DNA of 64,000 bases, from assembly GCA_046563655.1 (NCBI GenBank), contig CM102287.1:5270001-5334000 (forward strand). Reading direction: 5' to 3'. Every line of letters begins with the position of its first letter. Within the stretch, counting starts at the first letter, position 1. Position numbers and translations under genes: made by a program. Under the pieces are notes generated by a model. It worked only from the letters and a program-made list of their open reading frames with translations, was not told the origin of the DNA and ran no database searches. Source of the DNA: Yuukianura sp. NJ FZ-2021 (Eukaryota). Shown here piece after piece: positions 647-57,254 of the stretch.

Positions 647-1269
647 TGCACTTGTGGGCAGGTTTTTGCTCTACTGTGACAGTAAAAAAAAGACAGTCGT
701 GTCATTTCACAAGAGTTGAAATGTTTTTATAAATAATAATATGTTAATATTTAATTACTGAATATTGAAACGTCGTTTGCTGCTCACTCTAACCTTTTCG
801 AAGTCAAAAAACTCGCAACGCCGAAGAACAACCGACCAGCGCTTTGCTTATTCTTGCGAACTGCAGTTTCAAGTCCAACTTATGATGATGATGCATCATA
901 ATGGGGATGGCAATCGTGGTTATTTGTTTTAGCAGTTGAAGTGTTTTTAATTACAAAAAAATACACTGCTGCTATTGACATTTTTTAGAAATAGAAGCTT
1001 TGTAAAAGTTTTCGTTCCGCACTTCTTTTTAAAACATTTCTTTTAGTTATTCAGTTTAAAATCAACGAAACGTGCTGCTGCATGATGAACAGATCCTAAA
1101 AATAGAAAGTTTTAGAAAGAAAAAAAGTTTTTGTACAGGAAGAGTTTTCTGTTAAAGTTCAGTTTTTTGAATGAATCCAGACTTTGTGCGCTATGGAAAT
1201 CGTGTACAGTGGTACAACATAACTTTCTAGAGTTCCAAAGTTGAAGAATTGAACTCAGAAATCTAAGAA

Positions 1270-52736: not shown

Positions 52737-55700
52737 TTACTTCCAATATCGTCTAGCTAAAATGCTACCCAAGGCTATTGTTAATACTGTGACACTGAAA
52801 AGTCCGACACGAAATCCCGAAAAAATCTCTGTAGATGTAGAAGGCTCTGATGAAGCCGAAATGTTGTCCAGAATTTGTGATTTTTCTGGACATACTGATC
52901 CTGTATCCACCTCATTCCGCTTATCACACTTATTTATACCAGCATCACCCTCCAATGAACGAAGCGACTGAAGTTCAGTGTTTGCTTGACTTAGCTGCTC
53001 AATTTTGATTTGAATTTTCCCGCTTGTGTATGCTGATGTCCAGGTTTCCAGTTTCAATTTGAAACTACGGGTGACATCTTCCAAGTTTCTTGAAGGCGTT
53101 AAGGTTGAATCACACCCGATTAATGCCACCACCGAATTTTGTGCTGGAAACAGCATTTCAGGATACGGATAGCCGAGAATGTTACAGCGCTTGCCCAGAT
53201 CAACCACCAGCCTCACCAGTCTTGAACTTAGAATTCCTTCGCAAATGACAACATCCTTGAGGTCATCGCAAATGATCTGAATTTGGACATAAGAAGGATA
53301 TTTGCTATAAAAATCTTCTTTTTCGCACAATATCTTCCATTTTTCTTCGAAAGACGCTCCAATTTTTGCCAAGATTTCATTTCCTCTCGATATTTCTTTT
53401 TGGATAAGCGATCTAGTACTTTTTGTGACATTTCTTGCTCTGTTCAAATAAGGAAAAGACGGTGCATGAATTGGCATCAGTTCGGGCACTTTGCTTTCAA
53501 ACATCGCTGGAGTTGATATGGGCTGAAGCTGAACTGGACTCGGCCATTTCCAAAATGAATAAAATTCAAAAAATTCTTCAACGAGGTCCTCAGCAGTCGC
53601 TTGTTCCGGCTTCAGTTCCGTGTCTAGAATGATTTTTGCCAGGAGCAGCGCAATTGTATTGCTCGAAAAGTATCCCATGACCTGCCCGTAGATATTGCGT
53701 TGTTTTGCCCAGTATTTGACGACCCTCATGCAAACACAGTAGGTTGGCCACCATTCTTGTGGAATCAGTGAACAAAGGGCTTCGACTTCCTTGATACCAT
53801 CGATTGAACGAACGAACGATTCTGATTGGCTGCGCAGTTCCTGGTCACTGATGTTCTGCCAGTTGTCAGCTCCACAAGGACAGTACACCACATCAACCTC
53901 CAAACATTCGTAGGTCTTAAACCGGGCTATTGGAACTAACGTGTCTAGTACAATTGAAACTAGCTGTAGAGTGTTGTCCACTTTTGAGTTACAAACTTGC
54001 CGCAAATTTTCAAAAAATGATTGATGTGGTACTTCCGGTGGACCGCAGATAAGAATGTCAATGTCGCTGGAGTCATCATGAAAACCGAATTTCGAGGATC
54101 CAACAAGATGGACACTCACGTCCTGCGTAACTTGCATACAAAGTTGTTTGATTTCAGTCAGAACCAGCGATTGTACTGCCTCGCGTTCTGCAGATGGAAC
54201 TAACTTGTTCAGAACAAAAAATTTTTGAAGAAATGGAAATCTTTCTGGACGTTTTGCTTCTGAGCCAAGTGGAATTGACTTTCGAATTCGAAATGGATCA
54301 TTGAATTTTCGACTGATGATGAAAATGCTGTCAATTGTAAATTCAATTCCTTCGCCAATTGCCTCCTGCCATTCTTCCATTAATTTCGTCGCCATTTCCT
54401 TTTCTTGGGTTGTTCTGATTGAAAGTTTTGCTATGGTGAGATGCGGTGTAAACCCAGATCCAGATTTGCTGCTCTGTTCGTTACATGCTGGATACGCTGA
54501 TTCCAACTCATGCTGCAAGTATTTTACTTGTTGGAGTTCGCTAGGCGAAGATGTTGTCAAATATACCGTAAGAAACTTTCCGGATTTAAAAGTTTCTACT
54601 TTTGACAAGCGGATTTTGATCGGATCGATATTTTTTAGAACCTGCGCAAAGGATTCTTGGGCTTCGTTGAATCTAACTTTGTTTTCCGGTATGAATCCAT
54701 ACAGTAGGTTAATATGTGGAGGCCATCGGACATAACTTGGATCAAAATGGTTTCGAATCGCTTGAATTTTAGGCCAAACGTCAGTTGGTGGGATTATGGC
54801 TACTGCGGAAGTATGGACTGGAGACATTGCGTCTTCTTTAGTCTGTATCTTGTGGGGCGCCTGCGCCAATATCGGGAAATCGGCATTGTTTTCTGCGACT
54901 GCTACTGAAGCTACAATTGGTTGCTCCAGTTTCTTGGTGGGACGGATAATAAAATCACATTCTAGTGCAAAATGATCGCTCAGGTACAGTTGATGCTGGA
55001 CGGGAGAAGTGTTGGACGGACTTCCGGAAACTTGATTCCTCGCTGGAACTCCGAAATCTATTGGCTCCTTTCCCGTGACGCGCAGTTCTCCTGCAACTTC
55101 CAATAAATTTGCTTGCGGATTCAACAAAATTCGGTCAAACCGGGCCTCAGTTGTCCGTCGTGCAAATTGTTTCGCCAGCGTATTTTCGTAAATACTGAAT
55201 GTCCATCCGGGATCCGAATCGGAGCGGTCTTGTCTAAGATGCTCCACCAAGTCAACAATTTTCACCTTCATTTTGGAGTTGTCAATGTATTCTTCATTTC
55301 CGAAATTTGTGTCACCCACAATCAGAATATTCGGTTCTGATTGGCTCTTTGAAGTAAGTTGACTCAATGACGCTACGACATATTCCAGTTGTTTATGCCG
55401 CATCTTAGACGCTTCTCCTTTAAAATTCGAAATCAAATGGACATTGGCAATGGCGAGAACAGCATCGGAGAATGGGAAAGCAGCCAGCGTGAATCTTCTA
55501 GAAAAATGTTCCGTATGGAACAAATTAGACGGCTGAAATTTTGTTAGAAAAAGCTGTCCATAAGGCTTAATGGTTGCTCCTACACTGGAGATGTCGCTGA
55601 GAAAATACTTTTCTTGTACCCATGATACAGATTCCAAAATGGACAGAAACTTTGGCGTCACTTCTTGGAGGGCAATGATGTCAGCGTCTGAATCTTCCAG

Positions 55701-56426
55701 AAAATCAATCAAGTAAGGCCATCGATTATTCGGAACATGAAAATCCTCTTCATAAAATTCGTACAACACATTCAAACTAATCAATTTGAATATTTCAGCT
55801 TCTATTGTGGGTGCCATTTGCCGACAAGGGGTCCATCTTCCGTCGACGTCACTATACTGATACACTGGAACTTCGTGATATCCTGTTGGTATGACCACTT
55901 GATGCTGACCTCTTGGTTTTTTGACCTGTTTGACCCCATTTGCAAACGTTTCACCCGAATTGAAAATTAAGTCCAGTCTGGTCTCTCGATCCCAGTAGAT
56001 AATAGCCCCTGGTGGCCAATTGTCTTCTCGAACAGCAATTTCGCCATCTTTTCCAATCATCGGAGCAATTGGTGGACCACCGCCACGGAAATAATAAATT
56101 CGGTGAAACGGAATATCACCTTCTTCAGCACAGGGATTGAAGTCTGTGAATTTGACTTCGCACATTCCTAGGAAACGATCTTTGTATCCAATATAGAGTT
56201 GTGAGACATCAATATCAAGAGCCTCAGAGTCCCATTTCAATCGATTAAATACGTCTTTCGATGTCCGCAATTTTGCCTTTGCTTCTCCATCTAATTTGCT
56301 GGAACAATTAATTGGTTTTGAATACAACTTTGCTTTGCCATTGGCCGGATTTGAGTTTGAGGGCCGTGACCTTTCCTTTTTCTTTTGTGACGCCTTGTTT
56401 TTCGAAGCGGGTGCTTCCATATCCAT
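52737..56426 (-). CDS. Multidomain RNA end-processing protein: MJ1316 + EEP + 2H phosphoesterase + poly(A)-polymerase-type NTase + C-terminal TM
   Basis: Uninterrupted ORF, first ATG at 56426. MJ1316 (VFNRLKWD, IGYKDRF, IPFHRI, WDR). EEP (SLNVL, IIALQEV, GDTN, FDRIL, SDH). 2H (RWPPHINL, FTPHLTI). PAP (VGSSKFG, SDIDIL, EVDVVY, VKYWAKQRNIY, GYFSS, FYSFWKWP, MPI..P). Confidence 0.9.
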   Translation of the reverse strand: MDMEAPASKNKASQKKKERSRPSNSNPANGKAKLYSKPINCSSKLDGEAKAKLRTSKDVFNRLKWDSEALDIDVSQLYIGYKDRFLGMCEVKFTDFNPCAEEGDIPFHRIYYFRGGGPPIAPMIGKDGEIAVREDNWPPGAIIYWDRETRLDLIFNSGETFANGVKQVKKPRGQHQVVIPTGYHEVPVYQYSDVDGRWTPCRQMAPTIEAEIFKLISLNVLYEFYEEDFHVPNNRWPYLIDFLEDSDADIIALQEVTPKFLSILESVSWVQEKYFLSDISSVGATIKPYGQLFLTKFQPSNLFHTEHFSRRFTLAAFPFSDAVLAIANVHLISNFKGEASKMRHKQLEYVVASLSQLTSKSQSEPNILIVGDTNFGNEEYIDNSKMKVKIVDLVEHLRQDRSDSDPGWTFSIYENTLAKQFARRTTEARFDRILLNPQANLLEVAGELRVTGKEPIDFGVPARNQVSGSPSNTSPVQHQLYLSDHFALECDFIIRPTKKLEQPIVASVAVAENNADFPILAQAPHKIQTKEDAMSPVHTSAVAIIPPTDVWPKIQAIRNHFDPSYVRWPPHINLLYGFIPENKVRFNEAQESFAQVLKNIDPIKIRLSKVETFKSGKFLTVYLTTSSPSELQQVKYLQHELESAYPACNEQSSKSGSGFTPHLTIAKLSIRTTQEKEMATKLMEEWQEAIGEGIEFTIDSIFIISRKFNDPFRIRKSIPLGSEAKRPERFPFLQKFFVLNKLVPSAEREAVQSLVLTEIKQLCMQVTQDVSVHLVGSSKFGFHDDSSDIDILICGPPEVPHQSFFENLRQVCNSKVDNTLQLVSIVLDTLVPIARFKTYECLEVDVVYCPCGADNWQNISDQELRSQSESFVRSIDGIKEVEALCSLIPQEWWPTYCVCMRVVKYWAKQRNIYGQVMGYFSSNTIALLLAKIILDTELKPEQATAEDLVEEFFEFYSFWKWPSPVQLQPISTPAMFESKVPELMPIHAPSFPYLNRARNVTKSTRSLIQKEISRGNEILAKIGASFEEKWKILCEKEDFYSKYPSYVQIQIICDDLKDVVICEGILSSRLVRLVVDLGKRCNILGYPYPEMLFPAQNSVVALIGCDSTLTPSRNLEDVTRSFKLKLETWTSAYTSGKIQIKIEQLSQANTELQSLRSLEGDAGINKCDKRNEVDTGSVCPEKSQILDNISASSEPSTSTEIFSGFRVGLFSVTVLTIALGSILARRYWK

Positions 56427-57254
56427 GACCAAACTATTGATTGACAAAATTTAATTTTAATTAAATGTGAAATTTAATTCGTCTGAATTATAGAGTAATA
56501 ACTAAACCCACCGAAAATATTTGCAGCTCAAAGACTTTCCTATTGCTCGCAAAAAAGAAGGATCAACTACTTTACTAAATAAGTAAAATTCTGCGAAATA
56601 ATTAAAATTTTTGAGATGTTTTTTCGTCGAGTTTTACTAAATTAGAGAGTGAACAGCAGTTTTCCGCCGCTTTCCCTTTGACTTTTATACAATCTCACCT
56701 TCACCAGATTTGCTGTTCATACTCAACGTTCGCGTATCAAAGTTTTCACAAGTGACTACGCCAAGCCAAAACGTTTGCGGAATTATTTTGTTGCATGAGT
56801 CAAGCATTATGAAAAATGACGTTGTGATAACGTTTGTATTCCATGGTCATTTGTCAATTTAGCTCTTAGAAGACAATACTCCACAACGCGCGTGGAAATG
56901 CAGAAATAACTAATCAGTAAGCAAAGTGTGAAATTTAATTTATAGCAATTGCAAAACACGAAAAAGAGTGTCAAACATCTTTATCAAAATGAACACCCGT
57001 CTATGACAATGAGCGAAATAGGATACACAACACAGTTAGTTCAGTGAATATTTTAGCGCAAAAGTGCCACTTTTGTGCTTGATTTGGCAATCATGATTGC
57101 CTTGAACAAAGGTTATTCTACTGTGGTCAGGTTATCTCTTTTCGCAGCAGACTAAAATTTGGTTTCTACAAAACATGTTCTTTGCAGCCTCGAGAACTGC
57201 TCAGTTACCACAAACTATCAGACACAACACTAACCAGCTTATTTAGTCTACAAA

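Follow-up and report, generated by a model that had tools for sequence, protein, structure and literature searches.

A four-domain open reading frame in the Yuukianura genome

Within a 64,000-nucleotide stretch of contig CM102287.1 from Yuukianura sp. NJ FZ-2021 (assembly GCA_046563655.1, positions 5,270,001 to 5,334,000; hereafter the window), a single reverse-strand open reading frame (ORF) encodes a protein in which an MJ1316 domain, an EEP domain, a 2H phosphoesterase and a predicted poly(A) polymerase (PAP) follow one another in series (Table 1). An in-frame TTG lies upstream at 56447. The first ATG is found at 56426, and the length of 1229 amino acids is counted from it; the stop codon occupies 52737-52739. 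It is not a chance ORF, because 1229 codons stay open in DNA of approximately 40% G+C and the product has full-length homologues. By eye, the minus strand of window positions 56437-56705 contains an AT-rich run with an AG seven bases before the ATG, resembling a 3' splice site, and a donor-like site containing GT some 260 bases farther upstream; this interval may be an intron in the 5' untranslated region.

An earlier note, made from the letters of this DNA alone, had described one ORF carrying four nucleic-acid modules with apparently intact catalytic motifs. Pfam, a profile search of the PDB and two AlphaFold2 models together retrieved these modules in the order given by the note, MJ1316, EEP, 2H and PAP (Pfam residues 54-114, 238-437, 546-706 and 739-1035), with the folds confirmed, and the segments that the note had delimited agree with the domain ranges found here to within a few codons. 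The catalytic motifs are likewise intact: in a family alignment of 15 sequences that includes the window protein (A1), the residues of all three enzymes are kept in the window protein and the expected columns are invariant, save for one 2H histidine conserved in 14 of the 15 rows and a nuance in the first 2H motif, described below.

Table 1. Features of the four-domain gene and of its surroundings (positions are those of the window; residues are those of the protein)
Feature	Residues	Position	Strand	Evidence or remark
Four-domain gene, complete coding sequence, single exon	1229 codons + stop	52737..56426	-	ORF list, translation, full-length colinear homologues
N-terminal basic Lys/Ser-rich low-complexity leader	1-50	56277..56426	-	A1: comparable extension in P0002 only
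MJ1316 (PF04457)	54-155	55962..56267	-	Pfam match 54-114, E 7.5e-10
Insert of ~24 residues within MJ1316	~118-141	56004..56075	-	A1 columns 120-150; Folsomia sequence
EEP domain of TDP2 type	212-492	54951..55793	-	Weak PF03372; PDB profile; AlphaFold2 + Foldseek
2H phosphoesterase (PF13563; YjcG/LigT-like)	536-720	54267..54821	-	Pfam, PDB matches
Canonical PAP module	739-1156	52959..54212	-	Pfam, PDB profile, AlphaFold2 + Foldseek
PAP submodules: nucleotidyltransferase (NTase); central; predicted C-terminal, like an RNA recognition motif (RRM)	739-883; 896-1035; ~1045-1156		-	Pfam + AlphaFold2
Predicted tail anchor: hydrophobic helix, then short basic end	1207-1224	52755..52808	-	Hydropathy
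MIT_C gene, split into short exons		57.7-58.2 kb		
AMP-binding enzyme, in at least 3 pieces		59.4-61.0 kb		
Na/H-exchanger exon		44.3-44.6 kb		
Six similar ORFs, ~2-kb spacing	223-239 aa	7671-18680	+	First with Galactosyl_T (PF01762), E 2.4e-34
Arylamine N-acetyltransferase ORF, one open frame	253 aa	32499-33260	+	PF00797, E 3.2e-13
Open frame	866 aa	19742-22342	-	No Pfam match at E<=0.01

Identity of the individual modules

The MJ1316 match scores 39.8 bits, well above its cut-off (26.3), and residues R62, W65, D66, R84, H108, R109, W145, D146 and R147 are near-invariant in A1. MJ1316 has been described as a domain that recognises the 2',3'-cyclic ends of RNA and that, in eukaryotes, occurs in fusions with RNA-repair domains (PMC6514570).

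The Pfam match for the EEP module is weak, with Exo_endo_phos (PF03372) at residues 238-437 reaching 19.8 bits (E 7.3e-4), under the cut-off of 24.5. The assignment holds because the family profile matches TDP2 chains in the PDB at E 3.9e-26, because TDP2 structures fill Foldseek ranks 1-44 for the AlphaFold2 model of residues 45-502 (best E 8.9e-16, template-modelling (TM) score ~0.8 on the target; mean predicted local distance difference test score (pLDDT) 85.3), and because the domain exceeds the Pfam cut-off in orthologues, for example at 39.4 bits in Folsomia. Neutral sphingomyelinase, CNOT6L and PDE12 come below TDP2 in the same Foldseek search, and phmmer searches of the PDB with the EEP domain alone, or with the MJ1316 domain alone, gave no match. 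N219, E255, H330, D372, N374, D431, D484 and H485 are invariant in A1. Judged by profile and model, the EEP module is TDP2-like and not CCR4- or APE-like; TDP2 is its best profile and structural match and is alike in metal-binding and catalytic positions, at 16-20% identity. We call it TDP2-like, not TDP2, because the N-terminal UBA domain of TDP2 had no match at E<=1 in a Pfam scan of the window protein. The substrate of TDP2 is a 5'-tyrosyl DNA adduct, whereas that of the window EEP is expected, from its context, to be an RNA 2' or 3' end.

The 2H module is matched by 2_5_RNA_ligase2 (PF13563) at residues 546-706 with 97.8 bits (E 7.9e-28) against a cut-off of 27, and weakly by TIGR02258 in NCBIfam; its nearest solved relatives are Bacillus subtilis YjcG (2d4g) and the Arabidopsis cyclic phosphodiesterase (1fsi). 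The first of its two motifs reads H571-I-N and the second, in the classical form, H662-L-T. H571 is invariant in A1 and H662 is the residue conserved in 14 of 15 rows, while the first motif takes the form H-x-N in 12 of the 15 rows and H-x-T in the other three.

Three Pol-beta NTase models (MTPAP-like, PAP_NTPase and NTP_transf_2) match residues 739-883, PAP_central (PF04928) follows at residues 896-1035 (E 3.7e-27), and the NTase columns G776, S777, D788, D790 and D845 are invariant in A1. In the PDB, the family profile retrieves PAP gamma and alpha, yeast Pap1 and Pla1 at E 6e-68 to 3e-61. Foldseek aligned the AlphaFold2 model of residues 530-1165 (mean pLDDT 90.0) with whole PAP chains: bovine and human PAP alpha and gamma, Pap1 of yeast and Pla1 of fission yeast. 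These alignments span 457-514 columns and reach TM scores of 0.68-0.80 on the target. PAP_RNA-bind (PF04926) was not detected by Pfam in the window protein; the model ends in a beta-alpha-beta-beta-alpha-beta unit (~1045-1156), as expected of a PAP RNA-binding domain. Sequence and model identify the polymerase as a canonical PAP, probably complete, for which ATP-specific, template-independent 3' adenylation is predicted. With canonical PAPs (alpha/gamma, Pap1, Pla1) it shares the catalytic and central domains, the G-S and three-Asp signature and, by model, a putative RRM-like domain, at ~20-23% identity. Unlike them, it is fused behind three end-processing domains, and we found no evidence for CPSF/Fip1-type partners.

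Lineage-specific additions

Relative to the rest of the family, the window protein and its closest relative, P0002 (1213 aa, 49% identity), add a basic N-terminal leader and a tail-anchor helix. The leader is unconserved beyond P0002 in A1. The helix, which the earlier note had overlooked, contains the top 19-residue hydropathy window of the whole chain (Kyte-Doolittle mean 1.89) and has the predicted form of a tail anchor; an equivalent C-terminal hydrophobic helix is present in P0002 and absent from the Folsomia candida orthologue. In the lineage of the window protein and P0002, it would probably hold the enzyme at an organelle membrane, on the side of the cytosol.

The MJ1316 insert is limited within the family to the animal lineage of the window, being common to the window protein, P0002 and Folsomia candida and missing from the bacterial rows of A1. 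Because all three have it and no bacterial row does, the insert marks these sequences as one lineage. Two metagenome contigs carry stretches that run across the insert position, L078 (544-912) at 63% identity to window protein residues 50-168 and L081 (2586-2945) at 52% identity to residues 49-160; by sequence, this shows further putative members of the animal lineage in metagenomes.

Distribution of the family

A word-index protein search returned 15 proteins, 13 of which have all four Pfam families. Fourteen matched at E values between 0 and 1e-63 and covered 74-91% of the query, and the weakest was a red-alga protein named LENG9 (E 4.9e-24) with MJ1316 and PF13563 only. In an exhaustive search, 4338 proteins matched at E<=1e-3, and at the stricter limit of E<=1e-30 there were 280 representative clusters, counts that take in partial architectures; the representatives scanned with Pfam all had the four families (13/13). 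Named eukaryotic members comprise the Folsomia candida orthologue (XP_021946634/OXA59204, 40% identity), Brachionus plicatilis RNA21173.1 (named 'poly(A) polymerase'), Capsaspora owczarzaki CAOG_08076, Balamuthia mandrillaris KAL6065166, the dinoflagellate Gymnodinium smaydae and Soliformovum, and an Atlas look-up showed that clusters with this architecture also exist in Actinomycetota, Ascomycota and Rotifera. Two of the 13 scanned representatives, P0051 and P0063, are permuted (2H-EEP-PAP-MJ1316); PAP_RNA-bind is detected in them, and they group with Balamuthia in the trees.

Among prokaryotes, sampled as one genome per species, a scan with the single protein gave no match and an alignment-based scan gave 70 loci, 24 of them treated as full-length. 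These cover six phyla: 8 Myxococcota, 7 Actinomycetota, 5 Cyanobacteriota, 2 Bacteroidota and 2 metagenome-assembled genomes labelled proteobacterium and Clostridia, with loci from Calothrix, Rivularia, Corallococcus, Nannocystis, Dactylosporangium and Xanthocytophaga as examples. A metagenome scan gave 35 loci, none of which exceeded 32% identity to P0034 among matches of at least 1000 residues. The family is alike in its four domains, their order and its invariant catalytic residues and is colinear over ~85-91% of its length; the window protein is 25-31% identical to the bacterial rows of A1.

Sequence and models identify the window gene as an intact new member of a known, predicted MJ1316-EEP-2H-PAP family. 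The architecture is not new, nor is its occurrence in animals, and the novelty implied by the earlier note was overstated: a survey of the full architecture finds it in bacteria and in several eukaryotes, animals among them, and the same four-domain protein is public for a springtail, a rotifer, Capsaspora, amoebae, fungi and many bacteria. The only unusual traits of the window protein are its lineage-specific tail anchor and insert. Such fusions were reportedly described, likely for the first time, by Burroughs and Aravind in 2016; in the literature searched, we found no biochemical study of the four-domain architecture and no paper on it. Vertebrate LENG9 consists of MJ1316 and 2H only, with a CCCH zinc finger. 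LENG9-type proteins share with the window protein the succession of MJ1316 and a PF13563 2H domain and differ in being without the EEP and PAP modules; the CCCH zinc finger was not detected in the window protein by Pfam.

Phylogeny and origin

We built a FastTree overview of 147 rows (representatives of 800-1400 aa only, plus the 24 bacterial loci) and, from a 41-row subset of it, an IQ-TREE quick search under LG+C20 with posterior mean site frequencies (PMSF) and Shimodaira-Hasegawa-like approximate likelihood-ratio (SH-aLRT) supports. The overview unites the window protein with P0002 and Folsomia at full support, inside a 27-row group to which all named eukaryotes belong. The subset comprised the window protein, 17 rows from this 27-row group, 12 without taxon label and 11 labelled bacterial, and the two trees agree. 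In the IQ-TREE tree, SH-aLRT support is 99 for the window protein with P0002, 100 when Folsomia is added and 95 with the further addition of P0034/P0035; the branch with all 23 bacterial-side rows on one side has a support of 99. Brachionus sits on a very long branch.

On this sequence evidence the animal gene groups with eukaryotic rows and is not nested in a bacterial subclade, and for that reason its recent import from bacteria is unlikely. Its probable origin is either an ancient acquisition from a microbial eukaryote or retention since an early holozoan. Two histories are possible: the gene may be an old holozoan one that most animals have lost, or it may have been transferred from a microbial eukaryote into springtails and, separately, rotifers. 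The retention of architecture and insert by orthologues at 49% (P0002) and 40% (Folsomia) identity argues for long purifying selection.

A giant-virus or other viral donor was also considered. Of two viral-contig scans, both pattern-limited, one gave no match and the other a single distant, partial match (L071, 21% identity), and such a donor is unsupported by these scans.

Gene neighbourhoods in bacteria

In 6 of the 24 full-length bacterial loci, the four-domain gene has ligase/kinase-type neighbours on the same strand; these are all five of the cyanobacterial loci and one of the two from Bacteroidota. In the cyanobacterial loci (L002, L003, L005, L008 and L016), it comes third among adjoining genes of one strand, preceded by genes for an RNA ligase (PF09414, E ~1e-33 to 1e-38) and a protein joining HD/HDIG to an AAA_33 P-loop kinase, the latter weakly similar to bacterial Pnkp and to mammalian polynucleotide kinases. 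In the Bacteroidota locus (L011), two RNA ligase genes, one of Rnl2 type, lie upstream and an HD-kinase-like gene downstream; across the six loci, the PF09414 matches range from E 1e-31 to 1e-38. As they occur in only 6 of 24 loci, these neighbours do not define the family. A SIR2-family gene (E ~1e-45) is found directly upstream on the same strand in two Corallococcus loci (L006 5206-5997, L007 1566-2345) and may reflect a functional partnership other than the ligase-kinase cassette.

We infer from these gene contents that ligase, 5'-kinase and four-domain protein would form a complete repair set for breaks with 2',3'-cyclic-phosphate and 5'-OH ends. The logic of healing broken RNA ends is that of the Pnkp-type plus RNA ligase and the RtcB/RtcA repair cassettes; the four-domain family differs from them in its predicted use of 2H and EEP, not a Pnkp-type phosphatase, to heal the 3' end, and in the addition of a poly(A) polymerase. 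The animal copy stands alone, in contrast to the six bacterial copies that adjoin an RNA ligase and a Pnkp-kinase-like gene.

Genomic setting in the animal

A secreted cysteine-rich protein is encoded directly downstream of the four-domain gene. The flanks carry genes for an EB-module protein, a SET-domain protein, which had a single match in the protein search, and a SEC14-like CRAL_TRIO/GOLD protein, whose best named matches are from ants, bees and molluscs at 27-30% identity. Farther away, the array of similar ORFs looks, by sequence, like tandem beta-1,3-galactosyltransferase-like genes, and the arylamine N-acetyltransferase ORF may be another foreign-looking gene. The four-domain gene is a single 3.7-kb exon, whereas genes on both sides are broken by introns. 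Contamination was considered and rejected as unlikely, since the neighbours on both sides are intron-bearing animal genes; with the EB, SEC14-like, Galactosyl_T, MIT_C and split AMP-binding and Na/H-exchanger genes nearby, the earlier placement of the gene in an animal genome is supported. Its lack of introns is consistent with acquisition or retroposition.

Proposed function

We consider it moderately likely, on the basis of the domains and their bacterial context, that the window protein is a single-chain enzyme that heals and tails RNA 3' ends. MJ1316 would dock on an RNA end whose 2',3'-cyclic phosphate stems from cleavage by a metal-independent ribonuclease, the 2H domain would open the cyclic phosphate to a monoester, the TDP2-like EEP domain would take off that phosphate or another end-blocking group, and the canonical PAP would add adenylates to the freed 3'-OH. 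This scheme is suggested by the ligase/kinase context of bacterial members, which is the strongest new evidence and supports the earlier note's idea independently, and by the description of MJ1316 as a reader of cyclic ends. In bacteria, the kinase and ligase encoded next door could also reseal the healed end. In the animal, tailing, for decay or stabilisation, would be the likelier end point, because no ligase or kinase partners are nearby, and the predicted tail anchor suggests that it would take place at an organelle surface.

Several observations weigh against this scheme. Each of its steps is read from domain identity, and recognition of cyclic phosphate by MJ1316 is itself a computational prediction (PMC6514570). 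The first 2H motif is H-x-N instead of the classical H-x-T/S. The closest solved relatives of the EEP module are TDP2 enzymes, which cut 5'-phosphotyrosyl links, and 2'- or 3'-phosphatase activity is not established for the TDP2 branch. A PAP of the processive type in a repair pathway that ends with ligation lacks an explanation. Eighteen of the 24 bacterial loci are without ligase/kinase neighbours, the two Corallococcus loci having SIR2 upstream in their place, and neither an RNA ligase nor a polynucleotide kinase was among the window ORFs scanned; no RNA-repair partner of the animal gene was found in the window within ~10 kb. As to its descent, the tree is a quick search with SH-aLRT only, and several eukaryote-side rows carry no taxon label.

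The earlier note had proposed that the EEP domain removes a phosphate and that the protein heals and then tails cut RNA. The EEP fold stands, by profile and by model, but the domain resembles TDP2, a 5'-tyrosyl phosphodiesterase, more than any known 2'/3'-phosphatase. The conversion of phosphate to OH is accordingly the weakest link in the proposed chemistry. For healing and tailing as a whole, the domains and a repair context (the 6 of 24 ligase/kinase loci) were found, and the chemistry is still read from them.

As far as is known, animals handle cyclic-phosphate RNA ends with separate enzymes, among them RtcB, ANGEL2, USB1 and CNP; some EEP enzymes, such as ANGEL2, remove 2',3'-cyclic phosphates. 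A more elaborate version of the heal-and-tail reading, which we regard as doubtful, would have a membrane-tethered, all-in-one machine in springtail-like soil animals, taken long ago from a microbial eukaryote and placed on the cytosolic side of the endoplasmic reticulum or the mitochondrial outer membrane, where it would remove or rescue cyclic-phosphate-ended RNAs arising, for example, from fungal ribotoxins acting at membrane-bound ribosomes or from IRE1-type cleavage. Ribotoxin damage, which the earlier note had given as an example, has a counterpart in a hypothesis published for the RNA-repair genes of bdelloid rotifers, and the rotifer papers make the suggestion reasonable. When bdelloids meet a fungal pathogen, horizontally acquired 'RNA ligase' genes, some with PF13563 domains, rank with those that respond by the strongest induction, and the authors propose that the RNA-repair genes defend against ribotoxins (PMC11258130). 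In the same study, an enriched set contains four Adineta vaga genes with the Gene Ontology term 'polynucleotide adenylyltransferase activity' (4/41), a lead only to possible members of the family (PMC11258130). According to a second report, RNA ligase and EEP genes are among the candidates for horizontal acquisition induced in rotifers after desiccation and radiation (PMC10809525).

Alternative explanations

Four other readings of the gene can be set against the heal-and-tail enzyme. The protein could be dedicated to tRNA, cleaning cyclic-phosphate cuts at the 3' end or in the anticodon loop and restoring one or more terminal adenosines, not long tails. The HDIG protein beside bacterial members does resemble the HD domain of a CCA-adding enzyme, through weak TIGR02692 matches (1e-7 and 4e-9) far under the cut-off, but the polymerase, with its central and predicted RRM-like domains, belongs to the canonical mRNA PAPs and not to the class I or II CCA-adding enzymes, the best CCA-enzyme match in Foldseek comes at rank 34 with a TM score of 0.36 on the query, and Pfam detected no tRNA-binding tail domain; we find this reading unlikely. 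The resemblance of the EEP module to TDP2, both by profile (E 3.9e-26) and by fold, would also suit an unlinkase that frees tyrosyl-linked RNA or DNA from protein or bulky adducts, in antiviral defence or the repair of topoisomerase damage, with the other domains as accessories, and one of the matched TDP2 structures (4puq) contains bound 5'-phosphorylated RNA/DNA. However, three of the modules are of RNA 3'-end type, neither UBA nor another TDP2 accessory domain was detected by Pfam, and the bacterial partners are an RNA ligase and a polynucleotide kinase, not DNA-repair genes, which makes adduct removal very unlikely.

An inert passenger, horizontally acquired or retroposed and no longer expressed or functional, would account for a single exon amid intron-bearing neighbours; it is at odds with a 3.7-kb frame that is intact and keeps all its catalytic residues, and with orthologues at 49% and 40% identity that retain the architecture, the lineage insert and, in one, the tail anchor. 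Such divergence without a single disabling change points to selection on the gene, and we rate this possibility as still less probable than adduct removal. Least credible, and highly improbable, is a role in oligonucleotide signalling, by which the NTase would make, and 2H and EEP degrade, 2'-5'-linked or cyclic oligoadenylates in the manner of OAS, PDE12 and AKAP7. Both the 2H and EEP families include degraders of 2'-5'-linked oligoadenylates (AKAP7_NLS matches weakly at E 1.1e-3, and PDE12 is at Foldseek rank 49), and one of the bacterial orthologues matches a CBASS cyclase very weakly (18.8 bits against a cut-off of 200); yet the NTase is far closer to canonical PAPs (E 6e-68) than to CdnC (4e-4) or to OAS, cGAS and CD-NTases, and MJ1316 and the ligase/kinase neighbours point to polymeric RNA ends.

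Implications

If the heal-and-tail reading is correct, the window protein would offer a compact and tractable single-chain model for the reading, opening, cleaning and tailing of cyclic-phosphate ends. If it were moreover tethered to a membrane, it would represent an arm of animal innate defence or RNA quality control without counterpart in model animals. The architecture occurs in springtails and rotifers, micro-animals of soil and fresh water in which foreign genes are well known, and this fits the published idea of a defence against fungal ribotoxins by acquired RNA-repair genes (PMC11258130). The window gene is a good candidate for the first biochemical study of the family and for exploring the idea of RNA repair as a defence in soil animals, and one characterised member would annotate hundreds of genes, as judged by the 280 representative clusters.

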